A DNA stretch of 64,000 nucleotides from an uncultured Methanomassiliicoccales archaeon (GTDB taxonomy: Archaea; Thermoplasmatota; Thermoplasmata; Methanomassiliicoccales; UBA472): positions 704,001-768,000 of the forward strand of contig OY968769.1 in assembly GCA_963695345.1 (NCBI GenBank). Reading direction: 5' to 3'. Position numbers and translations under genes: made by a program. Below the pieces are notes generated by a model that was given only the letters and a program-made list of their open reading frames with translations, was not told the DNA's origin and searched no databases. This document shows positions 23,783-59,169 of this stretch, in pieces; within the stretch, counting starts at the first letter, position 1, and the number at the start of each line of letters is the position of its first letter.

Positions 23783-26700
23783 TCACTTCCTCCTCATCCG
23801 GTCCACCTCGGTCTTGAAGGTCTGATCCTTCGCGGCGGTCACCGGGAATGTCCGGCTCTTCCGGCCTTTCTTCTCGACCGTCATCTGATGAACGTCCTCC
23901 GATACAAGGAACTCGAACTTACCCTCAACATCGGAGACCGTGCTCATGCCGTCCGCCAAGGTCACGGTGACCTCCTTGATCGGGTGGTCGTCCGGATCCA
24001 GGACCTGTCCGGTCATGGTGCCCTTCACTACGACGTAGAACATCCTCCTCCGGGCGATGGCCAGGAGCACAACCAGCAACGACGCTGCGACAGCACCGAG
24101 GATCCATCCCCAGATGGCCCAGCTGCTCTGACCGGAACCGGCTATCTCGATGGCGCCGAGGTCCATCTCTTCACCCGCGATGGCGGTGGCGTTGACATTG
24201 GCCAGCAGCTTGCCCTCCTTGGTGATGGTCAGGTTGTAGTCCCCGTCGTTAAGGTTGATGACGAAGTTCCCTTCCGCGTCACTGGTCACGTTCTTGCCCC
24301 CGGCGGATATGGTGGCGTTGGCGATCGGCTTTCCGTTGGCGTCCAGGATCTTGCCGTACACGGTACCGTTGGCGATGACCGTGAACGTCCACTGGGCACT
24401 GACCGGGTTCCCGGCCAGATCGTTGCCGCGCACCGAGACGGTGTAGGTATGGGAGTGGGCCAATGGCCGGGACGGCGTAAGCGTCAGGTTGGGACCGTCC
24501 CATGACATGGTCGCAAATATCCCGGGAGTATCCACAGTGACCGAGCTTTCGTTCATCTCCTCGCTGAAGAGCACACTGATGAGTGCATTGACCGGCACGT
24601 TCGTTCCCGTTGGCGAGGTGATCACCGCGGGAGCCACCGTGTCCACCAGGAACTCCAACGATGTGATCTCGGTGTTGCCCGCCTCATCGACCACCCTGAG
24701 CCCTATGACATGAGTTCCATCGGCCAAGGTGATCGTAAGGTTCGTCGTGGACACTTCGCTTTCGATCCAGGCCCCTCCATCCAGGCTTGTCCAGATTTGC
24801 TTGACCGGCGATCCGGTCCCGTTGATGTCCCATCCGATCTCCACGATGCTCTGGTTCAGCCTTTCCCCGCTGACCGGTGCCAGGATGGCCGCTATCGGCC
24901 GGACCGTGTCCAGGGTGAACCGGACGGATGCGGTGGCGCTGTTGTTGGCGCGATCGAACGCCTTCACCTCGAAGACGTGCTCGCCGTCGACCAGGCCGGC
25001 GAAGATGTTCCGGGCGGTGATGGCCGGAGGCGACCATATGCCGCCATCCATACGATACCGATAGCCCGCGATCCCGGAGGTCAGGTCGGTTCCGTTCCAG
25101 ACCATCTCCGATGCGTTGACGAACGCCAGATCCGAAGGTATGACAATGTGCACCGCCGGAGCGACCGTGTCCACCATGATGCTGATCGTGGCTATCATGG
25201 CGTTACCGGAGTTATCCCAGGCCCTGACATCTATCATGTGCGTACCTTCCGAAAGCTCTCCGAAGGTGCATCCGGTGTCACCGCAGGTCGACGACCACAT
25301 GCCCCCGTCGATGCGATACTGGAAGCCCAGCACTCCTGTGGTGGCATCGATGGCGTTCCATCTGACCGCCACGGTGGAGTGCTTGGTGATCCATCCGTCA
25401 TCCGGTGATGATATGACCAGGACCGGCGGGACCGTGTCCACGGTGAACGTGACGGATACCGTGGCCGTATTGTTGGCGTTGTCCATGGCCTTGACCTGGA
25501 CGGTATGGATCCCGTCATCAAGTCCGCTGAAGGTGCCGAGCACCGCCATCGACATCGGGGACCAGTCCCCGCCATCGATACAGTAGAGATATCCGGCGAT
25601 CCCGGTGGTTCCGTCGCTGCCCGTCCAATGGACGGTCATGGTGGTGGAGTTGGTGTTGACTTCGTTGTCCGGGGAGAGTATCTCGACGTGTGGTGAGACA
25701 GTGTCGACGGTCACGTTGACCGAGACCATTGCCGAGTTGCCGGCCCGGTCAGTCGCCATGACGTCCATCCTGTGCCTGCCGTCCGCCAATTCGCTGACCG
25801 TTATCCCGTTCGCCATCTCCATCGGTGCCCAAGCGCCTCCGTCCAGACGGAACGAGTAGTTGTGCACACCTGACGTAATATCGGTGGCTGTCCACGAGAT
25901 GCTGATCGACGTGATGTTGGTGTTGATGTCCCGGGACGGAGAGACGAACACCGGGATCGGCGCGACCGTGTCGACGGTGAAGGCGATCGAGGTGGTGGCG
26001 TTGTTCCCCGCCATATCGTACGCCCGAACCTCCACGGTGTAATTGCCATCCTCCAGATCAAGCATGACGTTCGTCTCGGAGGACAGGGAGGACCATTGGC
26101 CTCCGTTCACCCGGTATTGGTATCCCTGTATGCTGGTCGTGGCATCGGAACCGGTCCAGTTGACGTTGACGGTGGACGAGTTGCTGAATAGCCCGTTGAC
26201 CGGGGCGGTGATCTCCACCTCGGGAACGGTAGTGTCGACGGTGAATCCGACGCTGACGTTGGCGGTGTTGTTCGCCCAGTCGTAGATGCGGACCTCGACC
26301 GTGTTGACCCCCTCCGGAAGATCGAAGGTGTGACCGGTCTCCGTCGTCATCGACGACCACGTCCCTCCGTTCACCCGATACTGGTATGCCTGGACCCCGA
26401 CACCGATGTCATCGCCGGACCAGGTCACCGAGACCGATGGACTTTGAGAGTAGTGGCCTTCCGATGGCGCGATGATCTCGACCGTCGGTGCGGTGGTGTC
26501 CACGATGAAGCTGACGGAGACGACGATCTCGTTGCCGGCGAGGTCGATGGCCTTCACCTGGGCAGTGTGCGGACCGTCCGCCAGGCCGGTGATGTTCCGG
26601 AAGCTGGCCGACTGCATTTCCGACCAATCCCCGCCGTCGATGAGCACCTGGTACGAACCGATGGCGGATATCGCGTCGGTCCCCGACCAGGTCAGATTGA

Positions 26701-29700
26701 CCCAGCTGACGTTGAGGAAATAGCCTTCGACCGGGTTGATGATCGAGAGCATCGGCGCCTCCGTATCTATGGTGAAGTACACGACCGCCTGCTGCACGTT
26801 GCCGGCGAGGTCCCTCGCCTGGAGGACCACCGTCTGGTTGCCGGTGAACGTTACGTTGGCGAACAGGTCCGTTATGCCGGATACCCAGCTGCCCGAGCCC
26901 ACCCGGATCCGGTAATCGAACACCGAGGTCGTGGCATCGGAGCTGGTCCAGGTGATGCGCACCGTCGGGGTGTTCCAATAGGTACCGTTCGTTGGCGAGG
27001 TAATGGCCAGGACTGGCGGGACGGTATCGACGGTGAAGTTGACGCTCCTGACCGTGTAGTGCCCGGCCACATCGGTGGCCCGGACATTGACGGTGTGGGG
27101 TCCGTCGATCATGTTGTCGAAGGTTCCGTTCAGGTCCATGCTGAGCCCGGACCAGTCGCCGCCATCGATGCGGCACTGATACCCGGCGATACCGGATGTG
27201 GCGTCGCCGCCTTCCCATTCGACCTGCAGGGACGAGGAATTGATGATCGCCTCGTCGGCCGGATAGCCGATGGTCAGTTCCGGGGCGACGGTGTCGATGG
27301 TGAAACCTATGCTGGCATTGAACGTGTTGTTCGCCCAGTCATAGGCACGCACGACCAATATGTGATGCCCCTCGGGCAGGCCCGCGAATGTGTGGGTGAC
27401 CGTTCCGGAGAGCGGCGACCATCCTGCCCCATCCAACATGAACTGGGTTCCCTGGATTCCGGACATGACGTCGCCGGCGGTCCAGGATACCGTTGCCGAA
27501 TCGATGCTTATTAGCGATCCGTCGTTCGGAGCATCAATGGTCAGAGTCGGGTCGACCGTGTCCACCGTGAAGGTTACCGTCGATATTGACAACAGGTTCA
27601 CGTTGTCATAGGCACGGACCGTCACGGTGTGGAGACCCTCGACCAGATCCGTGAAGAGATGATCGCTGGTCGGGCTGACCCCGGACCATGCGCCGGAGTC
27701 CAGCCGGTAACTGTAACCGTGGACGCCGGACGTCGCATCTTCCGCATGCCAGTCGACATTGACATCGCTGCTGTTGAGGAGTATCCTGTCCAGTGGCAGA
27801 TCGAAGAATATGGTCGGTGCCACCGTGTCCAGGGTGAAATCCACGTAGGCCAGGGCCGAGTTACCGGCGATATCCCAGGCCAGGACGTCAACGCCATGCG
27901 TTCCGTCATCCAGTCCGATGAAGGTGTGGGCCACGTCCAGGGATGTCACGGACCATGCGCCGCCATCGACGCGGTACTGGTATCCGAGGATGCCGGAGGT
28001 GGCGTCGCTGCCGGACCAGGAGACATCCGTGTCATTGATGACCGCATGGTCGGCCGGGAGGTTGATCGAGACCGATGGTGCGATGGTGTCGACCATTAAC
28101 GATACCGAGGCGTACCTGAACGTTGCCGGCATTGTCCTGGGCGCCGACGGTGACGGTGTGGGATCCCTCACCTAGTCCAGGGAAGGTGTGGCTGGTGTCC
28201 GAGGTGAGATCGGACCATGCTCCGCTGTCCATCCTGTAGTAGTACCCGGCGATCTGGGACGTCACATCGTCCCCGGTCCAGGTTGCCGCGACCGAACTCT
28301 GGTTGAATATCTGGTCGATCGTCGGCGAGGTTATCGAGATAGACGGTTGCACCGTGTCCACCATGAAGGTGACCGACACGGTGGCGTTGTTGAGCACGTT
28401 GTCCATCGCGTACACGTCCAAGGTGTGCAGGCCTTCGCCCAGACCTGCGTAGATGTGCGAATCCGTCATCGACAGGACCGACCATTGGCCGCCGTCGATG
28501 CGGTAACCATAGCCGAGCAGGCCGGAGCTGCCATCGGTGGCGGACCATTCCGCGGTGATCGCTGCGACGGCATAGATGCCGTTGTCGGTCGGGTATGTTA
28601 TCTCCAAGGCGGGGGCGGTCAGATCGACCGTGAAGGTCACGCTGACGATGTGGGAGTTCATTGCCCGGTCGGTCACCATGATCGATACCGTGTGACTGCC
28701 TTCGCTCAATCCGGAGAAGAGCGCGGCTGATGGTCCATGCCGTTCGAAGTCCAACCAGCACCGTCCAGGGAGTAAGCGTATCCCAGGATGCCGGAGGTGG
28801 CGTCGGACCCGTTCCAGAAGACGGTGGCGGACGTACTGCCGGTGAACCATCCATCCGTCGGATGGCTGATGGCCAGAGCCGGTACGACCGTGTCGACGGT
28901 ACAGTGGAACAGTGCGATCTCCGAGTTGTTGGCGTTGTCGTATGCCTTGATGCTCACGGTGTGCGAGCCGTCGGTCAGACCGGCGAACTCGTGGGTCAGG
29001 TCGAGCGACAGCACCGACCACGCGCCGGTATCGATCTTGTACTGGTATCCCATGATGCCGGAGGTGGCGTCGCTGCCGGACCAGAACACCGAGACGGTGG
29101 TGGAGTTGGTGATGAGCCCTTCATTCGGCACAGTGATCGTTACAGTCGGCGAGACGGTATCGACGTTGAACGTCACCGACGTCTCGAAGTCGTTGCCGGC
29201 CAGGTCGATGGCACGGACGTCCACCGTGTGGTTCCCGTTCACTCCCGTGGTGAAGGTATATGTCAATGCACCGGAGGTGGCGGACCAGCTTTGCCCGTCG
29301 ATGCGGTACTGGTAGCCGAGGATGCCAGACCCGGAATCGCTTCCTTCCCAGTCGACACGGACGTCGAACGAGTCGGAATAGAACCCGGGGGCAGGTGCGG
29401 TGATGGTTACGGTCGGATCGATGGTGTCGACCCGGAAGGTGACCGACGCCGAGGCGTGGTTATGGGCGACATCGTACGCTTCCACGGTCACAGTGTGCAA
29501 CCCATCCGACAGCCCAGTGAACGTGTTCGTCCAGATCATGCTGACCGATGACCATTCTCCGGCGTCGATGCGGAACCGGAAGCCCTGCAATCCGGTGGTA
29601 AGGTCATCGCCCGTCCATTCCGTCGGCATCGAATCAGCGTTGGTGATCGCGTTGGCGTTCGGGACGGTGATCGATACCGATGGGGCGGTGACGTCGACCG

Positions 29701-32700
29701 TGAAGTTCAGCCAGGCATAAGCGGAATTGCCTACATTGTCATATGAACGGATGCCGACCAGGTGCACCCCGTCGCTCAGACCGGCGAACTCGTGACTCAG
29801 CGAGCCGGCCCTTACCGACCAGGCGAGGCCGTCGATGCTGTACTGGTAATCGAGAACACCGGACGCGCTGTCGGTGGCGGACCATGTCACGGTCATCGAT
29901 GATACGTTGGTGATCGCGTCATCCGCCGGGGATGATATCGTGATCGCTGGGGCGGTCAGGTCGACGGTGAAGGTCACGCTGACGGTATTGTAGTTCAGCG
30001 CGTAGTCCGTCACCAGGACGGTGACGGTGTGACTGCCTTCGCCCAACCCGGTGAAGGTGTGGCTCAGGCCCATCCCGGTGCCTGTCCAGGAGGCCCCGTC
30101 CAAGGAGTAAGCGTATCCCATTATGCCTGATGTCGCATCGCTTCCGTTCCAGAAGGCGGTGACCGCGGTGCTGCCGGTGAACCATCCTTCCGTCGGGTGG
30201 CTTATTGCCAGCGCCGGCACGACCGTGTCGACGATGCAATGGAACACGGCGGTCTCAGAGTTGTCAGTGTTGTCGAAGGCCTTGATGTAGACCGTATGCG
30301 GACCGTCGGCCAGACCGGTGAAGTCGTGGGTCAGGCCCAGGGACAGAGCGGAATAGGAACCGGTGTCTATCTTGTACTGGTATCCCTTGATGCCGGAGGT
30401 GGCGTCGCTGCCGGTCCAGAACACCGAGACGGTGGTGGAGTTGGTGTTGAGGCCTTCCATCGGTCCGGTGATCGTTAGGATCGGTGGGACAGTGTCGACG
30501 TTGAACGTCACCGACGTCTCGAAGTCGTTACCGGCCAGGTCGATGGCACGGACGTCCACCGTGTGGTTCCCGTTCACGACCGTGGTGAAGATGTACGTCA
30601 ATGCATCGGAGATCGAAGACCAGCCCTGCCCGTCGATACGATATTGGTATCCGAGGATGCCGGAGCCGGAATCGCTGCCTTCCCAGTCGACGCGGACGTC
30701 GAACGAGTCGGAATAGAACCCGGGGGCAGGTGCGGTGATGGTTACGGTCGGATCGATGGTGTCGACCCGGAACGTCACCGATGTCGTGGCGGTGTTGTCC
30801 ACCAGGTCGAACGCCTTCAGGTAGACGGTGTGGATGCCGTCGGCCAATGAGGCGAAGTCGTGGGTGACCGCACCGGTCATCGCAGACCAATCCTCGCCGT
30901 CCACATGATACTCGTATCCCTTGATGGCGGTGATGACGTCGTTTCCGTTCCAGCTGACCGTAACCGTCGAGGAGCTCGAGTTGTAATTGGCCTCGGGCGT
31001 GGTAATGGCGACGATCGGGTCGGACGTATCCAGGGTGAGGTTGACGGACGCGATGGCGAAGTTGTTGGACCGGTCGGTGGCCTTCACCTCGATGATGTGT
31101 CCGCCGTCGGTCTGGCCATTGAAGATGTGCGTCAGGCCCATCGCCGATGTCGACCATGAACCGCCGTCGATGCGGTACTGGTAGCCGGCGATGCCGGAGG
31201 TGGCGTCGGAACCGTTCCAGGTGACATCGATGGATGTGACCAGTGCGTCCTCCGACGGTATATTTATCGTTACTATGGGCGCAGTGACATCGACCACGAA
31301 TGTGACCGAGGCAACCCTCAGGTTATCCGCCAGGTCGAACGCCCGGACAAGGATCGTGTGCGACCCGTCGGCGACACCGTTGAACACGTGGGTGAGGTCC
31401 GTGGACCTGACCGACCACTCGCCGCCGTCGATGCTGCACTGGTAGCCTGAAACGGCGGTCGTCGCATCGGAGGCGGACCATGACGCGGTGACCGACGAGG
31501 AACCCAGGTAAGCCGCGCTTGCTGGCGCTGTGATGTCTAGCACAGGCGCTACATCGTCAATGGTGACGTTCACGCTCCGGAAAGCGGTCCTTCCGGCCAT
31601 ATCGATGGCCTTGACGTCGACGCGATGGGCGCCGTTGGACAGTCCGCTGAACGTGTGGCTCAAGCCACCTGCGGTGGCCGTGTACCCGCCGTTGTCGATC
31701 TGGTACTGGTAGCCGGCGATTCCGGAGGTGGCGTCGGATCCGTTCCAGTAGACGGTGACGGAGGTGGAGTTCGTCAGGTAGAGGTTCGCCGGGTTATCGA
31801 TGGACCAGCGTCGGGTTGACCGTATCCACCATGAACGAGACGGACCGGGTCTGGACGTTGTTCGCGTTATCGAAGCAGCGCACCTCCACGGTGTGTGTCC
31901 CTTCCGCCAGTCCGACGAAGGTGTTGCTGACGGTTTCATATGTTATCGAGGACCAAGCCTGACCGTCGATGCTGTAGGAGCAGCCCTGGATGCCGGAGTT
32001 GGCATCGCTGCGGGTCCAGGCGACGGTCATCGAATCGACGATCGAATACGTGCCGTTATCCGGGGCGGTGATCGACAGGGTCGGGGCGATCGTGTCCACG
32101 CGGAAAGTGACCGATGCCATGACATGGTTGTTCGCCACGTCGTAGGCTTCGACATAGACCGTGTGGGTCAGCTCCGCCAGCGAGGAGAAGGTGTTCTCTG
32201 TGATCATTTCGATCGACGACCAAGACCCGGAGTCTATCCTGTACCGGTAGCCCTGCAGGCCGGTGCCCAGGTCGCTGCCTGCCCAGCTGGTCAGGACCGC
32301 GCTGACGTTGAAGTTCTGGTCCGCGTTCGGTGCGGTGATCGTCAAGGACGGCGCGGTGACATCGACGGTGAAGTTGACCGACCGGACCTCCGAGTTGCCG
32401 ACGTTGTCGGTCGCTCTGACGTCCACCCTGTGGTTTCCGTCAGATAGGCCGCCGAAGGCATGGCTCAGTGATCCAGACAGCGCGGACCATCCCAGTCCGT
32501 CGACGCGGTACTCGTAGCCATTCACGCCGGAGCTCAGGTCCGTCGCAGGACCAGCTGACCGTGACCGTGGAGCTGTTGAAGATCGCGCCTTCGGTCGGCG
32601 AGCCGATGACCAGCGCCGGAGCGGTCAGGTCGACATGGACGGTGACGCTGACCACGCGGTGGTTCTGGGCGTTGTCGGTGGCCCTGACGCTGAAGATGTG

Positions 32701-35700: not shown

Positions 35701-38700
35701 GAGCTTATACCGATATCCCAGGATGCCGGATGTGGCGTCGGACCCGCTCCATTCGACACCAACTGTGGTTACGTTGGTTATGTAGTTGCTCGCCGGCGAA
35801 TCGATCTGCACCGATGGTGCGACCGTGTCCACGTTGAACGTGACCGAAGTTTCTGACGGCAGGCTGGCGTTGTCCATGGCACGTATGTGCACCGTGTGGT
35901 CGCCCTCGCCCAGTCCAGAGAACGCGTGGGTCTTGGTCCAGGCCAGGACGGACCAGTCCTCGGCGTCGATGCGGTACTGGAATCCGGAGACGCCGGAACC
36001 GCCGTCGGTGGCGGTCCATACGACCGTGACCGTCGCCGAACTGGAATAGTAGCCGGCGGACGGGGACGATATCGAAACGGCCGGCGCGGTGGTGTCGACC
36101 CGGAACGTAACGGACGTGGTGGCCGAGTTACCGGCGTTGTCGACCGCCTTTACGTATACGGTGTGCAGGCCATCGGACAGACCGGAGAAATCATTGGTGA
36201 CCGCTCCGGACAGCGTGTTCCATCCTTCGGCATCGATGCGGTACTGGTAGCCGTTGATGCCGGCCGGGGAATCGGTGGCCGTCCAATCCACCGTGACCGT
36301 GGTGGAGTTGGTGATATAGCCGCCGGCGGGGGAGGTAATGGCGACCGCCGGTGGCGTCATGTCCAGAGTGAAGTTTACGGAAACGGTGTAGGTGTTGCCG
36401 GACCTATCGACCGCCCTCACCTCGACGAAGTGTCCTCCGTCGGCGAGACCGACGAAGGTGCGGGTGAAGGTCACGGCGACGGCCGACCAGGATCCGTTAT
36501 CGACCCGGGATTGGTAGCCCTGGATGCCGGAGGTGGCGTCGTTCCCGGTCCAATCGACGGTGGCGATGCCGACCAGAGCGCGGTCCGCCGGCGAGGTGAT
36601 CGATACCGCCGGGTCGGTGATGTCCACGACGAACGTCACCGAGGCGGTCCGGATGTTATTGGCCACATCATAGGCCCTGATGTCCACGGTGTGGGACGCG
36701 TCCGACAGACCGGTGAAGGTGTTGGTAAGGACCATGGCCTTGTCCGACCATTCTCCGCTGTCTATCCTATACTGATATCCGGAGACGCCGGAGACGGCGT
36801 CGGTGGAGGACCAGGTGACCGCTACCGAGGTGGAGTCAAGATAGGCTCCGGCCGACGGAGCCGAGATGGTCAGCACCGGAGCGACGTTGTCGACCGTGAA
36901 GTTGACCCTCTTGGTGGTGGTCCTGGTGGCCTTGTCGACGGCCTTGACGTCGACGTAGTGGTTACCGTTGGAGAGCCCGCTGAACAGGTGGAAGATCGGA
37001 GCCGTCGTTCCGGAGAAGCTGGCACCGTCGAGCGAATACTGGTAGCCGTTGATGCCGGCGGTGGCGTCTGATCCGTTCCAATAGACGGTCACGGACGTGG
37101 AGTTGGTAAGGTAGAGGTTCGCCGGGTTGTCGATGACCAACGTCGGGTTGACCGTATCGACGGTGAAAGAGACGGACTTGGTGGTCACCAGGTTGGCGTT
37201 GTCGAAGCAGCGTACCTCGACCACATGGACGCCGTCGGTAAGGCCGGTGAATGTGTTGCTGGTGGTTGCCAGAACGATCCCCGACCAGGCGCCGCCGTCG
37301 ATATGGTAGGAGCTTCCCTGTAGGCCGGAGCCGGCGTCACTGCGCGTCCAGGTCACGGTCTGCGAGGTGCTGGTCTGGTAGGCGTTGTTCGACGGTACGG
37401 TGATCGTCAATGTCGGGGCGGTGGTGTCGACCCGGAACTGTACGGTCGCCACGTAGATGTTGCTGGCGTTGTCGGTGGCCTTGATGTGCACATGTGCACG
37501 GCCTGCGACAGGCTGGTGAAGGTATGGGTCAGAGCTTCCGGCGATGGTGGAGTAACCTCCGCTGTCGATCTCCCACTGGTACCCGGCGATCCCGGCCAGG
37601 TTGTCGGTCCCGTTCCAGTTGACGATGACGGTGGTGACGTTGAAGATGGCGTTGTTCGCCGGGTAGGAGATCACGACGGACGGAGCCGTGGCGTCCAGAG
37701 TGAAGTTGCGGAACGTGTCGGCATAGTTGCCGGCCCGGTCGAACGCTTTCACCTGGACCATGTGGTTGCCGTCCGCCAGGCCGGTGAAGGTGCGGCTCGC
37801 GGTGGCGGAGAGAGAGGACCATGATCCCCCGTCGATCCGCGACTGGTAGTTCAGTATCCCGGAGGTGGCGTCATTGCCGGACCAGACGACTGCCTGGGAG
37901 TTGACAAGCTGGCCCTCGGTGGGCGAGGTGACGCTGACGGTAGGTGCGACGGTGTCGACGACGAACGTCACCGTGAGGGTGGCGATGTTGTTGACGTTAT
38001 CGTGCGCCCTGACCGATACCGTGTGCGAGCCCTCCCCCAGTCCGGTGAACGCGTGGCTGATGTCCATGGAGAGCGTCGAATAGGCCTCGGAGTCGACCTT
38101 GTAGGTGTATCCCTGGAGCCCGGTGACGGCGTCGCTTCCGGTCCAGACCACTTCCACCGTGTTCACGTTGAAGTACGATCCGCCGGCCGGAGAGGTGATC
38201 AGAAGGCTCGGCGCCACCAGGTCCACGGTGAAGCTGACCGTGGCCGAACCGGTGTTGCCGGCGTTGTCCTGCACCTCAACGTACACGGTGTGCACGCCGG
38301 TGGTCAGCGAGGTGAACGTGCGGGTCAGCGAACCGGAATAGGCAGACCAGGCCACCGAGTCTATGTGGGAGCGGTAATGCCATACGCCGGAGTTCTCGTC
38401 GGAGCCGGCCCAGTCGACCTGGACCGAGGATGAGGCGGTGATCAGCCCGTTCGCTGGGGACGAGATCGACACCGTCGGCTGGATCGTGTCGACGTTGAAG
38501 GTGACGCTCACCGAGTTCTTGTTGCCGGCGTTGTCCTCGGCCTCGATGACCACGGTATGCACTCCCTGGTCCAGCCCGGAGAAGGTGTGGGTGGCGGTCA
38601 TGCTCAGCGAGGAGAACTCATCGGAACCGATCTTGTAGCGGTAGCCGGCCAGCCCGGTGCCGAGGTCGATCCCGGTCCAGGTCACGGTGACCGACGTGGA

Positions 38701-41700
38701 CGAAGAGATGTAGTTATCGGCGGGAGAGCTGATGGAGACGCCCGGTGCCGCCGTGTCGACGATGATTCTGATGGTGTCCACGGCGTTGTTGCCGGCCAGA
38801 TCCCAGACCTGTATGTCGACAGTGTGGGTGTCATCGCCCAGGCCAGAGAACTCGTGGGATAGGTCGTTGGACAGCACCGACCAAGCGCTTCCGTCGAGAC
38901 TGTACTGGTAGCCAGTCACTCCGGACAGCGCGTCGCTGCCCTCCCAGATGACCGTGACCGTCGAGGAGGCAGAGATGGAATAGTCAGCCGGCGATGTTAT
39001 GTCGATCGTCGGCGCGGTGGCGTCGAGCGTGAAGTTGACGAACGCATAGGAGCACGAGCCGGTAATGTCGAACGCCCGGACCGTCACGGTGTGATTGCCA
39101 TCGGCCAGTCCGGAGAACGTATTGCTGGTGGTCAGGTCCATGGTCGACCAGGCGCCGCCATCGGCACGGTACTGGTAGCCAGCGACACCGGAGGTGGCGT
39201 CGGAGGCCGCCCAGGTGATGTACCGGTCGTTGACAAGCTCCCCCTCGGATGGTGAGGTGATCTCCAGAACCGGAGGCACCGTGTCGACCATGAAGGTTAT
39301 CGACCGGAGCGTGACCAGGTTGGCGTTGTCGAATATCTGGACCCGGACGGTGCGGTTGCCGTCCCCCAGGCCGGTGAACGTGTGGCTGGTGTCCGAGGAG
39401 ATCGAGGACCAGGCACCGCCGTCGATGCTGTAGCGGTATCCCTGGACATCGGATGTCAGGTCGGATCCGGACCAAGAGACGGTGACCGAGGTGAGGTTGG
39501 TCAGATGGTCGACGGACGGGGCGGTGATGGATAGGCTCGGAGCGACCGTGTCGACCACGAACGTGACCGAGTCGGTCTCGCTGTTGCCGGCGTTGTCGGT
39601 GACCTTGACGTAGACCGTGTGGGTCCCGTCCGTCAATGAACCGAACAGATGGCTGGTCGACATGGACGAGGAGGACCATGAACCGCCGTCCAGCTTGTAC
39701 TGGTAGCCGGCGATGCCGGAGGTGGCGTCCTCTCCGGTCCACCCGACGGTGACCGAGGAGACGTTGAATATGTCGTCGTTCGGAGGGCGAGTCGATCGCT
39801 ATCGTCGGGTTCACGGTATCGACCTTGAAGGTGACCGAGGCGGTCGCCATGTTGTTGGCGTTGTCCCAGATGCGCACGTTCACCGTGTGCGATCCATCCT
39901 CCAATGCATCGAACGCCTGGCTCAGCGAACTGGATATCGCGGACCAGGCACCGCTATCGATGCGGTACTGGTAGCCCTGAACGCCGGTACCGACGTCGGC
40001 GCCGGTCCATACGACGGTGACGGAGCTGAGCTTGGAGTTGTAGTTGTTCGCCGGGGAGGAGATCGTTATCGTCGGCAGGGTCAGGTCCACGGTGAAGCTG
40101 ACGCTTCCCTGGGCGGTGTTGCCGGCGTTGTCGATGACCTTGACGTCGACCTTGTGCAGGCCCTTGATCAGACCGCTGTAGGTGTGGCCCAGGGCGGTGA
40201 CCACCGATGACCATGAACTGCCATCGATGCGGTACTGGAAGCCGGCGATGCCGGAATTGGCGTCGGTCGCCGTCCAGTTGACCGTGACGGTGGAGGAGTT
40301 CGAGTTGAACACCGTTCGCCGGGGAGACGATGGTCAGCACCGGCGAAATCGTGTCCACGGTGAAGGCGACGGTGGCTGTTGCGAAGTTTGTGGAACGGTC
40401 GACCGCCATGACGTCGGCGGTGTGCGGTCCCTGGGCGAGCCCGGAGAACCCGTTGCTGACCCGCGAGACCAGTGACGACCATTCGCCGCCGTCGATGCGG
40501 TACTTGTAGCCCGCCAGGCCGGATGTCGCGTCGCTGCCGGTCCATATGACCGTGACCAGCGAGTTGCCGGAGATGAAGCCGTTCGGCGGCGAGGTGATGG
40601 AGACCGACGGATCGACCGTATCGACCACGAAGGTCACGCTGGCAATGTAGGAGTTGCCGGCGTTGTCGATCGCCTTGACGTAGGCGGTGTGCGATCCCTG
40701 GGCAAGACCCGTGAATACGTTGTCGGTAGATCCTGACTTCAACGACCAGGAGTCCCCGTCGATCCTGTACTGGTAGCCGTCCATTCCGGTGGTGGCGTCG
40801 GTCGCGGACCAGAAGACGTGCGGGTCAGCGGTGTTCAGGAACGCCCCGGTGGACGGCGAGGATATCGCCAGTACTGGTGCGGTGGTATCGACGGTGAAGC
40901 TGACCGCCGCGGTGGCGGTGTTGTCGGCCCGGTCATAGATCATGATGTCGACGGTATGCGAACCGTCGGAGAGGCCGGAGAACCCGTGGATCAGCATGAC
41001 CGTGAGCGAGGACCATTCGCCGCCGTCGATGCGGTACTTGTAGCCCTTGACGCCGGACGGGACGTCGCTGCCGGTCCAGGTAACCACGACGTTGCTGGCG
41101 GCGGAGATGGACCCGTTCGACGGCGAGGTGATGCTGACCTCCGGCGGGCTGTGGTCGCCGGTGTCGATGATGAACGTGACCGAGGACGTGGCAACGTTGC
41201 CGACGTTGTCGACGGCCCGGACGCTGACGGTATGCGATCCGTCATCTAGGGCGGAGAACAGGTGGCTCAGTACCACGTCTATTTCGGACCAGTCGCCGGA
41301 GTCGATCTTGAACTGGTACCCCTGGACGCCGGTCGTGGCGTCGGTGGCGTGCCACACCACGTTCATGAACGTGTCCGATGTGGCGGCGCCGCCGCTGGGA
41401 GAGGATATCGTAAGACTGGGAGCGACCGTGTCGACGGTGAAGTCGACGGAAGCGGTGCGGTTGTTGCCCGCCCGGTCGAACGCGCATACCTCGACGGTGT
41501 GCGTGCCGTCCAGCAGGTTGGTGAACGTGAAGGTCGTCGCCGACACCAGGCCGGACCAGGCGCTGCCGTCCAGGTTGTAGCGGTAGCCGAGGATGCCGGA
41601 GGTCGGGTCGACCCCGAGCCAGGTGACGGTCATCGACGTCGAACCGGTGTTGACGCCGTCGGCCGGGGAGCTGAACGATATGTCCGGCCGGACCGTGTCC

Positions 41701-44700
41701 ACGGTGAAGCTGACGTTGGCGGTCTCGAAGTTGTCGGCGTTGTCATACGCCCGGACGTATACCGTGTGGGATCCTTCGGACAGTTCCGCGAACAGATGGG
41801 TGACGTCGTCGGTCAGGGAGGACCATGCCTCCGAATCCACCTGGTACCGGTAGCCCTTGATGCCCGATGTCGGGTCGCTGCCGTTCCAGTTGACCTGCAT
41901 GGACGAGGAGTTGGTGTATACCGAGCCATCCGGCGAGGATATCGCGATGAGCGGCTTGACCGTGTCGACCGTGAAGTTCACGCAGGCCTTGTCGAAGTTA
42001 CCGGACATGTCGAAGACCCTGACCTCGACTATGTGCATTCCTTCGGAGAGCGGCCCGAACACGTGGAACAGGTCGTCGCTCATCTCGGTCCATTCCTGCC
42101 CGTCGATGCGGTAGATGTAACCGTCCACGCCGGACATCTCGTCGTCGCCGGTCCAGCTGACGTTCACCGACGAGGAGGGCGAGTAGTATTCGTTGACCGG
42201 TCCATTTATGGAGATGGTCGGATCGATGGTGTCGACCATGACCGTGACGGTCCTGATCCGGTCGTTGTCGGCGTTGTCCGTGGCCCGGATGTCCAGTACG
42301 TGCGTGCCTTCGGAGAGCGAAGTGAAGGTGAAGGTTATTTCATCGGTCAGATCGGACCACGCGCCCCCGTCCAGCCGGTGGCTGAAGCCCTTGAGCCCGG
42401 AATGAACGTCCCCGCCCAGCCAGATGACCCTTACCGATGATTGGTCGGAGTAGAACCCGTCCGCGGGCGAGGTGATCGACAGCGTCGGCAGGACGTTGTC
42501 GAGGTAGAACGTGACCGAGGCGGTGGCGGTGTTGCCGGCGTGGTCGGTGTCCCTGACCCAAACGGTGTGCTGGCCTACCGAGAGGCCGCTGAACACGTGG
42601 TCGCCGGAGACGCCGATGTCCGTCCAGCCCTGCCCGTCCACCATGAACTGGTAGCCCTGGATGCCGTAGCTCCCGTCCGCGCCCAGCGCGGAGACGCTCA
42701 CCGATGATGAGTTGACGTAGCTGCCGCTCGTCGGCGAAAGAATGCTTATCGTCGGCGCGGTGCAGTCGACGGTGAAGTTGACCGAGGCGGTCACGATGTG
42801 GCCGGCGTTGTCCCAGGCGCGCACGTCGACCCGGTGGTCCCCTTCCGGCAGGTAGTACGAGAAGGAGTAAGACAGCGTCGGTGAGGACCATCCGCCGTCA
42901 TCCAGCTCGTACTGGATCCGGTTGATGCCGGAGGTGACGTCGTGCAGGTCGCAGCTCACCGTGACCAGCACCGAGCTGGTCGACGAACCGTTGGCGGGCG
43001 ACGTGATGGACAGCGTCGGGGCGACGGTGTCGATCATGAACTGCACCGAGTCGGTGAGGACCGTGTCGTTCACGTCGACGGCGCGCACGTAGACGGTGTG
43101 CCATCCCTCGGACAGTCCGGAGAAGAACTGGTCCTCGGACAGTCCGCATGGGACCCATGCCCCGCTATCCAGCTGGGTCTCGTAATGGTCGATCTCGAAG
43201 GTCTTGAACAGACCCCAGGTGACGGTGACGTCGTTCGTCGTGAACGCAGTGTACCATCCAGGCGAGGTTATGGCGAAGGTCGGGCCGGTCCCGCCGATGT
43301 AGAAGCCGACGGCGTCGCTGCCCATGTTGCCGGCGTGATCGTATGCGCGTACGTAAACCGCGTGGTAGCCCTCGGACAGCCCGTTGAACGTGGCCGTCAG
43401 GTCTATCGAGAGCGGCGACCACTCGCCGCTGTCCATGCGACACTGGTAGCCGACGACGCCGGAGTTGAGGTCGCTCCCGGTCCAGCCGACGACGGCGGTC
43501 CGGTTGTCTACAGGCCCGGTGACCGATAGATAGTTGATGTCGACGATCGGCGGGTACGAGTCGGTGGTGAAGTTGACCGTCGCCGTGGCGAAGTTGCCTG
43601 CGCGGTCGTAGGCCCGGACCGTGAGCACGTGGCGCCCGTCCTGGATGGAGGTCAGAACCGTCCCGGTGGCAGAGGTCAGACCGGACCATCCGCTGCCATC
43701 CAGCCGGTACTGGTATCCGAGAAGGCCGCTGGTAAGGTCGCTGGCGGTCCAGTTGCAGTAGACGGAGGGGCTGGTGGTGTTGAACTCCGCGGCCGGGTCC
43801 AGGATGCTCAGGACCGGCGCGACGGTGTCGACGGTGATGGTAATGGATGCGCTGTCGTTGTTGCCGGCCCGGTCCAGGACCCTCACATCGATGGTGTGTT
43901 CGCCGTCGATCAGATCAGCGAAGGCGTGGCTTGTGCCGGTGGCGACGATAGACCATTCGCCGGAATCGATGCGGTACTGATATCCTTGCACCCCGGAGAC
44001 CGAATCGCTGCCCAGCCAGGAGACCGTGACCGACGGCGTCGCGAATATGGATCCGCTGCCCGGGGAGACGATCAGGACCGTCGGTTCGCCCGAGTCCACG
44101 GTGAACGTGGAGGTGATCCGGGCCCAGTTCATGGCGCCGTCGTACGCCTTCACGTCGAAGGTGTGCATGCCGTCCGGGAGACCGGCGAACGTCGCGTTCG
44201 GTGAATCGGAAAGCTCGGTCCAGGCCTGTCCGTCAATGCGGAACTGGTAGCCGGAAATGCCAGAAGTAGGGTCGGAAGAGGACACCCGGACAGTCACTGA
44301 TGAGGTGACGTAGGCCCCTTCCGACGGACTGATGATACCGAGGATGGGGATATAGGTATCTACGATGAAGGTGACCGAGGCGGTGGCTTCGTTGCCCGCC
44401 TTGTCGATGCACTTCGCCTCCGCGCTGTGCGGACCTTCTGCTAGTCCGGTAAAGTCGTGGCTGATCGCCTGGGTGGTGGCGGACCAGGCCCCGCCATCGA
44501 TGCGGTATTGGTATCCGCTCAGCCCGGCGGTGGCGTCGTAGGCGAACCAGATGAGCTTGACGGTGGCACTGTCGGAGTTGAATCCCATCGCCGGGGAGGT
44601 GATGGACATCTCCGGGGCGGTGGTGTCGACGACGAACGTCACGCTCTTGGTGATCGAGTTGTTGGCATTGTCGTAGGCGACGATCTCGACGGTGTGCGTT

Positions 44701-47700
44701 CCGTCCCAGGTGGAGGTGAACGTGAGCTCGGTGTCGACGGTCATATCGCTCCAGTCGCCGCCGTCGATGCTGTACAGATAGCCCTGGACGCCGGACGTGA
44801 GGTCGGTGGCGTTCCAAACGACGTGGACGAGGGCGTTGCCCAGGAACGCGTTCTGCGCCGGGGACAGTATCGTCAGTACCGGCGGGACGGTGTCGACGAC
44901 GGTGAAGTTCAGCGTGTCGATGGCCAGGTTGTTCGCGTGGTCGATGACCTTGACGACGAACGAGTGGTCGCCATCGCGCAGACCGAGGAAGGTGTGGCTG
45001 GTGGAACCGGTGATCGAGGACCAGGCGCCGCTGTCAAGCTTGTAGTAGTAACCGGCGATGCCTCCGGTGGCGTCGCTGCCCTCCCAGACGACGGTGAGGG
45101 CGGTCTCGTTCGTGATCAGGTCCGGCTCGGGCGAGGTGATCTGGACGGTCGGGACGGAGGTATCGACGTAGAACGTGACGGTCCGGGTCACGGTGTTGCC
45201 GATGTTATCGTAGGCCTTGACGCTGACCGTGTGCGAGCCGTCCGCCAGACCTTCGAAGACATGGCTGTAGACCAGCGATGTCGCCGGGTAGCTTTCCGAA
45301 TCGATCTTGAACTGGAAGCCGAGGAGACCGGATGTCGGATCGCTGCCGGCCCAGGTCACGTTGACCGTTGACGACGGTGAGTAATATCCACCCGACGGGG
45401 AGGTGATGGACAGTGACGGCGCCGTCGAATCGACGATGAAATTGACCGAGATGGTGGCGGTGTTGCCGGAGCGGTCGATGCCCAGGACGTCCACCTTGTG
45501 GCTGCCGTCCGACAGCCCCACGAAATTGTATGTCTTGGTCATGCCCAGTGCGGACCATCCGCCGTTGTCGATGCGGAAGCGGAATCCCTGCAGGCCGGAG
45601 GTGTTGTCGCCGCCGTCCCAGGTGACGGTCATGCTCTGGAGCAGGGTCATCGTACCCTCGGCAGGCGTGGATATCGACAGGTATGGTGCGGTGGTGTCGA
45701 CGGTGAAGCTGACCGAGGCCACAGCAATGTTGTTCGAGTTATCCAGCGAACGGACGTATACCATGTGCACGCCGTCGGCCATGTCGGTGAACAGGTTGGT
45801 GGTGGCGTTGTCGATCGGCGACCATTCGCCGTCATCGAGGCGGAACTGGAATCCCTGCAGGCCGGAGTTCAGGTCGCCGCCGGTCCAGTCCACCCTCATG
45901 GAGGTGACGCTGGAATAGATCGTTCCGGTCGGGTAGGTGATGGAAATGGATGCCGGGACGGTGTCCACGGTGAAGTTCCGGCTGACCAGCCGGACGTTGT
46001 CGGCACTGTCGAAGACCTGTACCTCGACTATGTGCATGCCTTCCGCTAACGACGTGTACTGACGGGAGGCGGTGAGGCTTGATGCCGACCAGGCCTGTCC
46101 GTCGACGCGGAACTGGTAGCCCTTGATCGGGGAGGAAGCGTCGGTAGCGGTCACGTTCACCGTGACCGTCGAGGCGTTGAGGAATGCGCCTTCTGACGGG
46201 ACGGTTATCGTTACCATCGGCGCGGTGGTATCGATGACGAACGAGACGGTCGCGTTCTCCACCAGGCCGGCCAGGTCGAACGCCTGGACGGTGAAGATGT
46301 GGGCCCCGTCCTCCAGGTCGCTGAGGGTGATGTCGTTGAAAATGGAGATCGATGACCATTCGCCGTCATCGAGGCGGCAGCGGAACCCGGTCAGGCCGGA
46401 CCCGTTGTCGCTGCCGGACCAGATGAACGTGACCTGGTCGGTGTCGGACAGGAAGTCCTGCGCCGGCGAGGATATCGTGACCACCGGGGCGTAGGGATCG
46501 ACGCGGAACGTGACGGTGGCGGTGACGTAGTTGAGCGCCTTGTCCAGGACCTTCACCTCGACGGTGTGTGTGCCCTGGGAGAGGGCCGGATAGTTGAACG
46601 AGGAAGAGACGTTGATACCGCTCCATTCGCCCCCGTCAAGACGATACTGGTAGCCGAGCACGCCGCAGCCGGCGTCACCACCGGTGGTTACGACGGTCAC
46701 GGACGAGGTGTTAACCCAGTCGTTCTCGGCCGGGAAGTCGATGGCCAGCGTCGGAAGCGTCAGGTCGATGGTGAATGTGACCGAGGAGTTCTGGGAATTG
46801 TTGGCGATGTCGAAGACCTTCACATATAGCGTGTGCGAGCCTTCGCCCAGTCCGGTCAGGTTGATCGAGGGGGAATTGTTCAGTTCCGACCAGTCCCCGC
46901 TGTCCAGTTTGTACTGGTACCCGGCCAGCCCGGTGCCGGCGTCGCTGCCGGTGCAGGAAACGGTCACGGAAGATGTGTTCAGGTAGCTGTCTTCGGCGGG
47001 CGTATCGATGGCCAGGCTCGGAGCTGTCGTGTCGACGATGTACCAGACGGACGCTGTGGCGTTGTTGCCAGCCCGGTCGAGGACCTTCACATCGACGGTG
47101 TGATTGCCGTCGAACGCGCCCATCATTATGGTGGTCTGGGTCCCGGCGCTGTCCCATTCTCCGCTATCGATCCGGAACAGGTAATGATCGATGCCGGAAC
47201 CGCTATCGCCAGCGGTCCAGATTATCTCCACCCAGTTATCGCGCGATATGGTCCCGTTGGACGGGGTAAGGATAGATATCGTCGGATAAACGGCATCATT
47301 GGTGTAGACCGATACCGATGCGCTATCGGGGCTGGCAGTATCGGCATGGGCCACCAGGTAGTAGGTGTAGTTGGAAAGGTAGTGAAGGCCATTGTCCGTG
47401 TACGAAACGTCGTCCGGGCCGAGCGGGATCGAGGCGTTGTCGCCGGTGTCCGAGATGCGGTAGAGGGTAAGTCCGGTAACCGGTGAGCCGATGGTGTAGT
47501 TGAGGCCGGTCCAGGTGAGATGGACCGAGCCCTGTCCGACCACGGCGCTGAGACCGTAGGGCGAGGCGACCAGGGCGACCAACGGATACCCGTCGATGGC
47601 AGCGCCCGGTCCCGCCAGGAGATAGTCGGAATCTATTATGCTGTCGTGATCGAGATCCACCGATGGCAGGTCGCTCCAGTAGTTGCCGATGGAAGCTGAG

Positions 47701-48356
47701 GACCAGAGGTCGCTGGTGCCGTCCTCGTATGCCTGGGCATGTTCGATGTCGTAAACGGAGCTCGCGCCGTTGTTTCCGGTGAGGGCGTTGCCGTAGAAGG
47801 TGTTTCCCGACGAGCCGTTGGAGACCAGTCCGAAAGAACTGCACTGGGTGACTGTGTTGTTGTATACAGTGGTCGAGGTGGAGTTGCGGATCAGAACGCC
47901 GTAGCGGCACTCGCCGATGGTGTTGTTGACAATCAGGACGTGACTGGTGTTGAACAGGAATATGCCGGCACCTTCACCGAAGCCAATGGACAGGAGGGAG
48001 GCGTTGGTAAGGTGGGAGTTGGTTATGATCAGGTAAGAAGAGGTGTTGCCGATGGAGATGGCGTTCGAAGCGCCGGTGGCGTTTATTTCGAGGTTCTGGA
48101 AAATGTAAGGGTTGGCGGATGAACCATCACCCGGCCAATCGTTCAATGCCATCAGGTCGGCCAGGTCGGTGTTGTTGTGGACGACGATGGGGCCGTGTTC
48201 GAGCATCGGGGATGAGAGGCCCTGGGCAGACACCTGTCCGGCCGGCCCGATGAACAATGCTCCGGCGAGCGAGACCATCATCACCACTGCAAGCAGTGCG
48301 GGGATGATGCTCCTCTTTTTGTCATTGAACGAACGCTTGGTAATCCTGTCGATCAT
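23783..48356 (-). CDS. Giant (~8,190 aa) cell-surface protein: signal peptide, NosD/CASH-like beta-helix, FN3-like domain, 85 Ig-like repeats, SbsA-type Ig, carboxypeptidase-regulatory-like domain, TM, cytoplasmic domain; interrupted by small indels
   Basis: Seven long overlapping ORFs carry the same repeat (DTxAPxxxIxxP..W.GSD..SG..GYQY.IDGG.WS..F.GL.DG.HTV.V.A.D.AGN) and join mid-repeat near 40312, 39785, 32545, 31802, 28730 and 28120, plus a compensating pair near 37500. Net +7 bases: 24,574-7=24,567, divisible by 3. Confidence 0.9.
28780..30780 (-). repeat. Recent 5-domain-offset (~1.34 kb) duplication within the giant gene
   Basis: Near-identical DNA at ~29160-29440 and ~30495-30775 encoding VDTIDPTVTITAPAPGFYSDSFDVRVDWEGSDSGSGILGYQY. 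Confidence 0.85.
29400..37430 (-). repeat. 10-domain (~2.66 kb) higher-order repeat, about 3 copies, within the giant gene
   Basis: DTVNPTLVIDNPANLYLTNSTSVTV recurs with the GTAGAGGTT anchor at 37111, 34447 and 31778; exactly 10 Ig domains lie between recurrences. Confidence 0.85.
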
Positions 48357-49382: not shown

Positions 49383-50480
49383 CTAGCGCGGCTTTCTCTC
49401 CTGCCATTCCTTAGTCTCGGCATAATCGCGGGTCGCCTTGACCATGGCAAACAGGTTCGCCGCTGGCGTGGAGACAGGCAGTTCGCATCCCGGGCCGACA
49501 ATGTACCCGTGCTCGCATTTCGTAGCCGCAACGTCCAGATGGTCCCTGGTCGTCTTATACACCTCATCATAGGTGTTGATCATGAACTTAGCTGGCTCGA
49601 TGTTGCCCACGATCATTGTGGACTTCCCGAAGATGTCGATGACCTTCGGTAACGGCGTCCGGTAGTCGAAGTTGATGGCGAACGAACCTGGCACTTTGGC
49701 CCACAATTTCGCATTGTCGGTCTGGTTCCCGCAGGGGTGGCAGAGGAAACCGGCAGGAGCTCCTGCCTTCAAGGCACCCTCCCTAACCTTGATCAGCGAC
49801 GGCAACGCGAACTGCTCGAATTGCTTGTCGCTGATCAGATCGTTCGAGTCCGTCGGACCTCCATCAAAGAACATTATCGGGCCGACCGTGGACAGTATGT
49901 ACTTGACCTCATTGATGAGGAACTCTGACACGCTGTTTAGAACCTTATGCACCAGATCCGGTTTCTTCAGCATCCAGATGAGCATCGTCTCCACGCCGAT
50001 GATGTTCCCGGCGTTCGAGAAGGCGTCACCGGCCTGGACGGTGGGGTTCTTGTAGCCCTCGGGATAAGTTTCGAGAACATACCTGGCTCCACGACACCAA
50101 TCTTCGATCTCTCCCGCCGTGGCGGGGTCTGGGGTCTGCATCTTGTCGACTGCGTCCGGCGTTTCGATCGGGTGCCGCACGATGAGCGGGCTCTGAGCCC
50201 TCGAATCAGCTCCAGGGTAAGAGAGTTCTCCCCCGTATTCGGCAGCTCCGGCGCAAGCGTGGCCGAACAACGGCCCGGTGTCGAATCCGTAAAGCTCCTG
50301 GACCGGAAGGAACGCTTTGGCGAACTTAACCGGATCCTTGTAGCATTCACCGATGGTCAATCCCTTGTGCTGCTTGGATACGAAACCCATGGCGAATGCC
50401 CCGGCCCCCGGACGGTCTGCCCATCCGGTCTGGAAGAGCGACATCATCCTCTCGATGGGGGTCATAGTTTCCTTGAACAT
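49383..50480 (-). CDS. MtaA/MtbA/MtsA-like methyltransferase (URO-D fold), paralog 2
   Basis: MTPIER start, Zn motif HPCG...PGCE, IVGNIEP, ANLFAMV; ATG 50480 lies 2 bp after the corrinoid gene stop. Confidence 0.9.
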   Translation of the reverse strand: MFKETMTPIERMMSLFQTGWADRPGAGAFAMGFVSKQHKGLTIGECYKDPVKFAKAFLPVQELYGFDTGPLFGHACAGAAEYGGELSYPGADSRAQSPLIVRHPIETPDAVDKMQTPDPATAGEIEDWCRGARYVLETYPEGYKNPTVQAGDAFSNAGNIIGVETMLIWMLKKPDLVHKVLNSVSEFLINEVKYILSTVGPIMFFDGGPTDSNDLISDKQFEQFALPSLIKVREGALKAGAPAGFLCHPCGNQTDNAKLWAKVPGSFAINFDYRTPLPKVIDIFGKSTMIVGNIEPAKFMINTYDEVYKTTRDHLDVAATKCEHGYIVGPGCELPVSTPAANLFAMVKATRDYAETKEWQERKPR

Positions 50481-50481
50481 T

Positions 50482-51138: not shown

Positions 51139-51154
51139 TTTTTCACCTATCCAT

Positions 51155-51766: not shown

Positions 51767-51801
51767 TTTCCTTTCCTCCTAGTTCTACGACTTACCACTA
51801 A

Positions 51802-56569: not shown

Positions 56570-56679
56570 TTCCCTTCTCCTGGTCTTTACCGATTGTTAC
56601 ACTATGGGAGGTCATGGCATAAAAAGACGATAGCAGAGTAATTGGAAGGGATAGTTGTAAGTGATTGATAAGGAATATT

Positions 56680-59103: not shown

Positions 59104-59169
59104 TTTGTTCATAGCACTGGTCCAGGCATCGAATTGCTTCGGGGCTTACAGGATCTGTGAATCTAAACC

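Follow-up and report, generated by a model that had tools for sequence, protein, structure and literature searches.

Organization of a giant surface-protein gene

The DNA analyzed here, called the window throughout, is a 64,000-nucleotide (nt) stretch from an uncultured Methanomassiliicoccales archaeon (assembly GCA_963695345.1, contig OY968769.1, positions 704,001 to 768,000 of the forward strand). On its minus strand, from 48374 down to 23786, seven overlapping stop-to-stop segments of 2806, 449, 2452, 276, 1078, 362 and 1462 amino acids (aa) are spread over three frames. The seven pieces are best read as one gene. A unit of about 89 aa recurs in all of them, a signal peptide stands only on the first and a transmembrane (TM) helix only on the last. 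The repaired frame is about 8,188 codons long, in a 24.6-kb gene. We consider it likely that this single gene encodes a surface protein of about 8,188 aa with a type-I membrane anchor, a giant protein of the adhesin-like (ALP) type, and that the breaks in its frame are insertion or deletion (indel) errors. The parts of the gene were assigned using Pfam, NCBIfam, a custom hidden Markov model (HMM), AlphaFold2 (AF2) models, Foldseek and a hydropathy scan, and are listed below.

23783-48356, minus strand: the assembled gene, from the ATG at 48354-48356 to the stop at 23783-23785, with six frame breaks
48225-48356, minus strand: signal peptide, aa 1-44, with a basic n-region, hydrophobic aa 16-40 and the cleavage motif VSA/QG (translation and hydropathy scan, by eye)
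47562-48221, minus strand: beta-helix head, aa 46-265, with a NosD-type C-terminal cap motif (Pfam, NCBIfam, AF2)
47295-47561, minus strand: beta-rich linker of about 85 aa, called FN3-like in the sequence-only reading (strands from AF2; no Pfam match)
24641-47294, minus strand: 85 tandem 89-aa modules, an OmpL47-type/Big_13/Glucodextran_B-like beta-sandwich (custom HMM, NF047446, Pfam, AF2, Foldseek)
24380-24643, minus strand: Big_5 Ig-like domain (PF13205, 46.5 bits against a cut-off of 23.6)
24170-24364, minus strand: CarboxypepD_reg domain, predicted to lie outside the membrane (PF13620, 81.1 bits, two stretches)
24053-24121, minus strand: single TM helix of 23 aa, followed by RRR (hydropathy scan and sequence)
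23816-24019, minus strand: second CarboxypepD_reg domain, in the 89-aa tail past the TM helix (PF13620, 42.5 bits against a cut-off of 32.3)

Reading through the breaks, with an X at each, gave a product of 8,185 residues plus six X. The product is acidic (D+E 10.2%, K+R 3.6%) and rich in T, S, V and G. Only two hydrophobic stretches were detected in the hydropathy scan, at aa 16-40 and aa 8080-8104. By the positive-inside rule, the tail with the second CarboxypepD_reg domain is predicted to be cytoplasmic, and two smaller paralogous surface proteins of this genome carry a similar tail. The product contains 139 N-x-S/T sequons compared to 99.5 +/- 8.5 in 200 shuffles (z ~4.7), an enrichment which suggests that the stalk may be N-glycosylated.

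An earlier, sequence-only reading of the window had described a single repairable 24.6-kb frame with a signal peptide, a beta-helix tip, an Ig-like stalk of 85 repeats of about 89 aa and a C-terminal TM helix, together with conserved Asp motifs and many sequons. These points are confirmed here.

The module array

Twenty-one units of the longest segment were used to build the module HMM, which was then run on the three minus-strand frames. It returned 87 rows, which correspond to 85 modules, two of them being split by frame changes. The modules are arranged head to tail between 47291 and 24641, with scores of 45-123 bits for each whole unit. Protein identity between modules has a median of 41% (range 18-93%), and the longest exact DNA repeat within the array is 80 nt.

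The array has grown through block duplication. In the part between 29020 and 37473 (minus strand), a 10-module block was duplicated long ago (period 2,664 nt, about 70% DNA identity), and a younger copy lies at a 5-module offset, 980 nt long and 81% identical in DNA. At the protein level, module pairs 61/66 and 38/48 share 92-93% identity.

A 500-aa piece of the array was compared with curated profiles. The OmpL47-type beta-barrel domain model NF047446 matched five stretches at 134.9 bits (cut-off 40). Glucodextran_B (80.9 bits), Big_13 (65.7 bits) and Big_3_3 (44.6 bits) all exceeded the Pfam cut-off of 27, the Big_13 and Big_3_3 profiles being covered only in part. The modules do not belong to the Leptospira OmpL47 equivalog NF047441 (84 bits, cut-off 250), and the Ca2+-stabilized repeat adhesin model NF033510 (Ca_tandemer) scored 22 bits, below its cut-off of 50.

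Sixty-nine in-frame consecutive module pairs were aligned and used for both a structural model and a sequence profile. The two-module AF2 model consists of two 7-stranded beta-sandwiches and has a predicted local distance difference test score (pLDDT) of 97.9. Its best Foldseek match was the FN3-like tandem 3pdd of CbhA (E 1.7e-10, TMq 0.64). Domains BIg50-52 of SiiE (2yn3, 2yn5) were matched over both modules (E 1.8e-9 to 5e-8, TMq 0.65-0.74). Further matches were other FN3/Ig tandems, including an S-layer protein and the grappling-hook protein GhpA. The sequence profile found 14 sequences in the PDB at E<=0.01. The nearest solved chains were the chitinase A1 FN3 domain (E 3.2e-6), a bacterial Ig domain and PKD domains; 3pdd was reached at E 7.3e-4, and SiiE was not among the 14. 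Across the 69 two-module rows, D74 and D89 never vary, and at least 90% of the rows have D30 and D43.

The head and the linker

The head contains a parallel beta-helix domain, as recognized by Pfam Beta_helix PF13229 (43.2 bits, cut-off 25.9), Pfam NosD (39.6 bits, cut-off 23.6), NCBIfam para_beta_helix TIGR03804 (27.8 bits, cut-off 19.45) and AF2. The AF2 model of the head has a pLDDT of 82.7, with residues 1-220 mostly above 90. The head is not a member of the NosD copper-maturation family TIGR04247, which it matched at 55.6 bits against a cut-off of 300 and only over the beta-helix part. A search for homologues of the head returned 4,932 at E<=0.001, which were 29-39% identical save for two short fragments (96% and 73%). 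A specific enzyme or lectin family for the head was also sought, and none could be named since the structural matches were too weak (TM <=0.34).

The linker was the one part of the layout where the earlier description was not confirmed. The domain that it called FN3-like corresponds to aa 261-355, and no Pfam family, fn3 included, matched this region at E<=10. AF2 gave a 7-stranded beta-sandwich with a pLDDT of only 50-67, and a single FN3 protein, Tencon, was matched by Foldseek at rank 46.

Frame breaks and the error rate of the assembly

There are six frame breaks in the gene: five look like an extra base and one like a missing base. None of them lies in a homopolymer run longer than 3 bases. 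Beyond the stops caused by the shifts, there are no nonsense codons in about 8,185 codons. The breaks were compared with contigs of a related strain from a sediment-metagenome run (X1), which are 95-99% identical to the gene. The sites are listed below, together with a stretch where two indels compensate each other.

40306-40331, minus strand: break 1, one extra base; base 40313 is absent from the related strain
39782-39797, minus strand: break 2, one extra base in a CCC context; the related strain lacks base 39782
37492-37532, minus strand: 14-residue out-of-frame stretch between two compensating indels (comparison with the related strain)
32546-32548, minus strand: break 3, one extra base; base 32546 is absent from the related strain
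31800-31811, minus strand: break 4, one extra base in a GTCCATC context (frame analysis; outside the listed independent contigs)
28722-28735, minus strand: break 5, one base short; the frame is restored in the related strain by the absence of two more bases (28722 and 28735)
28106-28117, minus strand: break 6, one extra base; base 28117 is absent from the related strain

Five of the six breaks are error-like: at each, the related strain carries an indel that restores the frame. Deleting the six bases that the strain lacks opens the frame for 5,519 aa, down to site 4. If one further base is deleted anywhere in 31800-31811, a single open reading frame (ORF) of 8,188 aa results, ending at the stop at 23783-23785. 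The compensating pair at 37492/37532 was seen relative to X1 and to another run, X3. Against the module HMM, the X1-type version of this stretch scored 122.6 bits and the window 109.3 bits, and the pair is probably two further errors in the window that cancel each other. The pieces from runs X3, X4 and X6 were all short (about 150 nt) and of low depth. Of the 544 substitutions that separate the gene from the related strain, 40 were listed; third codon positions account for 28 of these 40, and 26 leave the amino acid unchanged in the assigned frames.

This genome is a single contig of 2.56 Mb with 85.06% marker-gene completeness; congeners assembled into one and six contigs reach 99% and 97%. 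Its error rate was estimated with 340 kb of the 99%-complete congener (G007), from which 199 ORFs of at least 200 aa were compared with this genome by tblastn. At 50% identity or more, 132 of the 199 matched, over 48,045 aligned aa. Of these, 26 were split across frames in this genome, with 35 adjacent frame changes, 31 from an extra base and 4 from a missing one. The rate of one frame change per 4.1 kb predicts 6.0 in 24.6 kb. Six were observed, with a 5:1 bias toward extra bases.

The reverse comparison, with ORFs of this genome searched on G007 DNA, found 22 frame changes in 18 of 131 genes. The second pieces in this direction fall to 55-66% identity, and we read these changes as the mirror image of the same events, resulting from out-of-frame read-through in this genome. 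The reverse comparison alone leaves open which of the two genomes errs. The question was decided by completeness and by full-length family matches in G007, where LeuRS (4-946 of 946), GluRS (3-567 of 567) and NrdD (1-580 of 581) are whole by NCBIfam profiles. In this genome, the same three genes are broken into 3, 4 and 3 frame pieces, respectively. An organism with both tRNA ligases broken would not be viable. Examples of indel-affected loci elsewhere in the genome are C1:90006-92932, 267164-268858 and 68323-70443.

The six breaks in the giant gene are very probably assembly errors rather than mutations because their rate and extra-base bias equal those of the whole genome, essential genes are hit in the same way, and the related strain reads through. 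The indel errors probably stem from long-read noise. Programmed frameshifting or phase variation was also considered and rejected, as the breaks lack slippery or homopolymeric sites and housekeeping genes break at the same rate. At about one indel error per 4 kb, any "broken" or "split" gene reported from this genome should be treated as a suspected artefact until it has been checked against reads.

Orthologues and spread in the order

The gene is conserved in congeners. In one of them (G002), a syntenic orthologue lies at G002:C9:118621-141700 (minus strand), spans about 23 kb and contains 87 module rows. Its head is 68-71% identical to the one described here and the C-terminal 290 aa are 61% identical; both loci have the same downstream neighbours and a histidine kinase upstream. 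Two more congeners, G001 and G006, have head fragments on short contigs at 55-76% identity, G001 with 77 module matches. In total, 3-4 of the 8 searched genomes of the genus carry the gene, this one included. The module type itself was found in 35 of the 41 searched genomes of the order (E<=1e-10). Elsewhere in these genomes, it occurs in open frames of about 1,000-2,900 aa.

Comparison with known systems

ALPs are treated as parallel beta-helix-repeat proteins in a comparative study of this order (PMC7883539) and have been reported for Methanobacteriales and Methanomassiliicoccales (PMC7883539, PMC13658579). In the portions of these sources available to us, the free-living clade tended toward higher ALP, Ig-like and FN3 counts (PMC7883539), Methanomassiliicoccales ALPs are called still undescribed as of 2026 (PMC13658579), and no experimental ALP function is given for the order (PMC7883539, PMC13658579). 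The protein described here resembles ALPs in its predicted signal peptide, its PbH1/NosD-type beta-helix, its Ig-like/FN3-like repeats and its host order. It differs in size, with about 8,188 aa and 85 modules compared to the 1,000-2,900-aa frames that carry this module type in the other searched genomes, and in its anchor, which is a C-terminal TM helix with a CarboxypepD_reg tail.

The sequence-only reading had compared the protein to SiiE, and this holds for the fold and the tandem geometry. SiiE is a 595-kDa adhesin of Salmonella enterica with 53 BIg domains, in which conserved Asp residues bind Ca2+ (PMC6272769). According to the accessible part of that source, there are five Ca2+-binding Asp residues, of which D43, D97 and D117 form an interface Ca2+ site, and lectin-like adhesion has been proposed (PMC6272769). 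Both proteins are long single-chain rods of tandem beta-sandwich modules, and the two-module model superposes on BIg50-52 (see above). The relative positions of the Asp residues, compared as sequence positions only, nearly coincide: 30/89, 74/89 and 89/89 here and 43/117, 97/117 and 117/117 in SiiE. No sequence relation between SiiE and the modules was detectable with the profile against the PDB at E<=0.01. SiiE carries a C-terminal secretion signal and is exported from its diderm bacterial host by type-1 secretion, whereas this protein has an N-terminal signal peptide, a C-terminal TM anchor, an archaeal host and a beta-helix tip of its own. With these termini and no type-1 secretion system (T1SS) genes nearby, it does not have the features of a T1SS substrate.

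The other close relatives are partial. The CbhA FN3-like (X1) tandem 3pdd of Clostridium thermocellum was the best structural match; it consists of two modules inside a cellulase, not a long array, and is 19% identical in sequence. The likeness to the OmpL47-type (NF047446), Big_13, Big_3_3 and Glucodextran_B families lies in the modules scoring above the curated cut-offs.

The protein is not a new kind. Giant tandem-Ig adhesins such as SiiE are known, and a beta-helix head on an Ig-like stalk is standard for a methanogen ALP. The halomucin of Haloquadratum has about 9,000 aa. The claim in the sequence-only reading that this would be among the largest archaeal proteins was overstated: the accessible part of a 2023 preprint reports archaeal proteins of more than 10,000 aa (10.1101/2023.11.21.568195), and the module type is widespread in the order. 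What sets the protein apart is its size for a methanogen, the regular pattern of Asp residues at the junctions, the TM helix with its CarboxypepD_reg tail, and its presence in several species of the genus. It was not mentioned in the accessible parts of the related literature that was found, although no search was aimed at this protein.

Proposed mechanism and alternative explanations

In the mechanism we propose, an N-terminal Sec-type signal peptide would direct export of the protein, and its single C-terminal TM helix would anchor it in the cytoplasmic membrane. The stalk of 85 FN3/BIg-like modules would carry the small beta-helix tip far from the cell. Modules of this kind are about 3.5-4.5 nm long, and 85 of them would give an extended stalk of roughly 300-380 nm. 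D30 (BC loop) and D74 (FG loop) are predicted to lie at the N-terminal end of a module, adjoining D89 of the module before it. By analogy with SiiE, D89 of one module and D30 and D74 of the next probably form one Ca2+ site per junction, and the three conserved Asp residues would in this way stiffen the stalk. The tip would be of a carbohydrate-binding or carbohydrate-cleaving class. The likely role would be attachment to polysaccharide-bearing surfaces, such as particles, biofilm matrix or partner cells.

Several observations weigh against an intact giant adhesin gene of this design, and they are given here along with the explanations that they could favor. The Asp residues were placed from the strand order of the model, the usual FN3 topology and their relative position rather than from coordinates. 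The Foldseek matches of the head, at the low level stated above, were all right-handed beta-helices, namely tailspike depolymerases, polysaccharide lyases and GH87 enzymes. These neighbours could mean that the gene is intact and does not encode an adhesin. The product would then be an envelope or spacer component, or a depolymerase-like beta-helix enzyme that cleaves polysaccharide and is presented at a distance. The module, Big_5, CarboxypepD_reg and TM parts also recur in smaller paralogues, which suggests a general envelope family. We regard this explanation as possible but unlikely. The enzymes that it appeals to are weak matches, no catalytic residues were identified, and beta-helix plus Ig-like proteins of methanogens are conventionally read as putatively adhesin-like in the accessible part of the comparative study (PMC7883539).

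Another possible explanation is that the frameshifts are real and the gene is a pseudogene, recently inactivated in this strain and intact in close strains. All six breaks are present in the deposited sequence, outside long homopolymers. The sediment contigs come from a different strain (2-5% substitutions), and an intact frame there is compatible with a pseudogene here. For the strain of the window itself, no public run contained at least half of the sampled words, and no RNA run was listed among the matches. Site 4 lies outside every listed independent contig, the nearest piece of the related strain beginning at 31818. A scan of metagenome contigs for the exact pattern around this site with a variable gap gave 0 matches, and a protein-guided metagenome scan gave just 3 loci, none of them an orthologue, at 25-28% identity. 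The orthologue in G002 has many breaks as well: its 87 rows show 21 frame changes, and the stretch at 136345-134000 is damaged. This could be either a noisy assembly or real decay. When intact proteins of 2,101-5,000 aa in a set of 5.8 billion proteins were searched with a 1,200-aa query, no orthologous head was found; the 5 matches were the query's own piece and 4 distant beta-helix proteins at 27-37% identity. Giant repeat genes are, in general, frequent targets of inactivation.

A pseudogene nevertheless seems improbable to us. The same break rate and extra-base bias run through the genome, including the essential LeuRS, GluRS and NrdD genes. The lack of nonsense substitutions, the mostly synonymous differences from the related strain (26 of the 40 listed) and the extra compensating indel pair, which is better read as two errors, all argue against decay. 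Assembly errors in one intact gene therefore remain our preferred explanation for the breaks.

The length of the array could also be an artefact, with repeats expanded or mis-joined by the assembler and a true gene that is much shorter. Eighty-five is the assembled number of modules, and no single read or contig spanning the array was seen. The assembly is error-prone, two module pairs are 92-93% identical, the 980-nt block is 81% identical, and alignments of contigs from related runs show many "joints". These joints have sides of only 20-30 nt, though, as is typical of cross-matches between repeats. We conclude that the array is not a product of assembly expansion because the modules have diverged to a median identity of 41%, exact repeats do not exceed 80 nt, pieces of the related strain of 0.5-1.9 kb are colinear with the window, and the independent G002 assembly has a similar, syntenic array of about 23 kb. 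An artefact of this kind is very improbable.

That the locus holds several adjacent genes for 5-7 separate repeat proteins, as its seven open segments of 276-2,806 aa, some with possible start codons, might suggest, is extremely unlikely, since every junction falls inside a module or at a module boundary with the module phase running on across it, the signal peptide is on the first piece only and the TM helix on the last only, intergenic gaps are absent, and the related strain reads through five of the six junctions.

Host and gene neighbourhood

The host had been taken for an archaeon in the sequence-only reading, and the genome agrees with this and is that of a methanogen. It carries McrA and two MtaB; MtrA and FTR were not found in this 85%-complete genome. 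The nearest named McrA proteins are from Methanomassiliicoccaceae (86% identity), followed by Methanomethylophilaceae and Methanoplasma. Judged by these genes, the host is a Methanomassiliicoccaceae-like, methyl-reducing methanogen. The order is known to depend on external H2 and lacks a cell wall.

The neighbours of the giant gene include sensor kinases, a phosphate-binding-type (PBP-like) protein and a methyltransferase/corrinoid cluster. No T1SS genes, other secretion system or glycosylation genes adjoin it. The regions of note around the gene are the following.

49383-52899, minus strand: directly upstream of the gene, two URO-D/MtaA-type genes, a B12-binding corrinoid protein and a Gpr1/Fun34/YaaH-type channel
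56676-56960, minus strand: fragment 66% identical to aa 10-105 of the giant protein, with 5 stops
57478-59760, plus strand: low-GC island with an AIPR (abortive-infection-type) protein of 541 aa and a 193-aa ORF with no Pfam match
63302-64000, minus strand, extending past the window: C-terminal part (Big_5 and CarboxypepD_reg) of another surface protein with 89-aa modules, in an open frame of 1,111 aa

The methyltransferase cluster upstream of the gene is absent from the syntenic place in G002. The fragment at 56676-56960 is a decayed partial copy of the 5' end of the gene, and it lies at the edge of a stretch of low GC content (42-45%) at 56-60 kb. The island at 57478-59760 is probably an acquired defence island. 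Further paralogues of the giant gene in this genome are located at C1:2541414-2543795, 407956-408768 and 358054-358959.

Implications for attachment in methanogens

Because the host looks H2-dependent and methyl-reducing, it is plausible that, as the sequence-only reading proposed, a glycan-binding head would tether H2 producers. A bolder version is that the protein forms a Ca2+-rigidified, glycosylated filament of about 0.3 micrometres on a wall-less, H2-dependent methanogen, anchored by the TM helix and a cytoplasmic beta-sandwich tail, whose tip captures the polysaccharide coat of H2 partners or particles. We consider this version doubtful. If it were true, no larger protein would have been described for a methanogen, and the filament would be an organ of syntrophic contact conserved in the genus.

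If the gene is intact, it would be among the largest archaeal genes and would encode the largest adhesin-like protein in the 41 Methanomassiliicoccales genomes searched. It would be a candidate for how free-living, H2-dependent, methyl-reducing methanogens hold on to particles or partners. With 85 near-regular modules and three conserved Asp residues at the junctions, the stalk may also offer a clean system for the study of Ca2+ stiffening outside bacteria.

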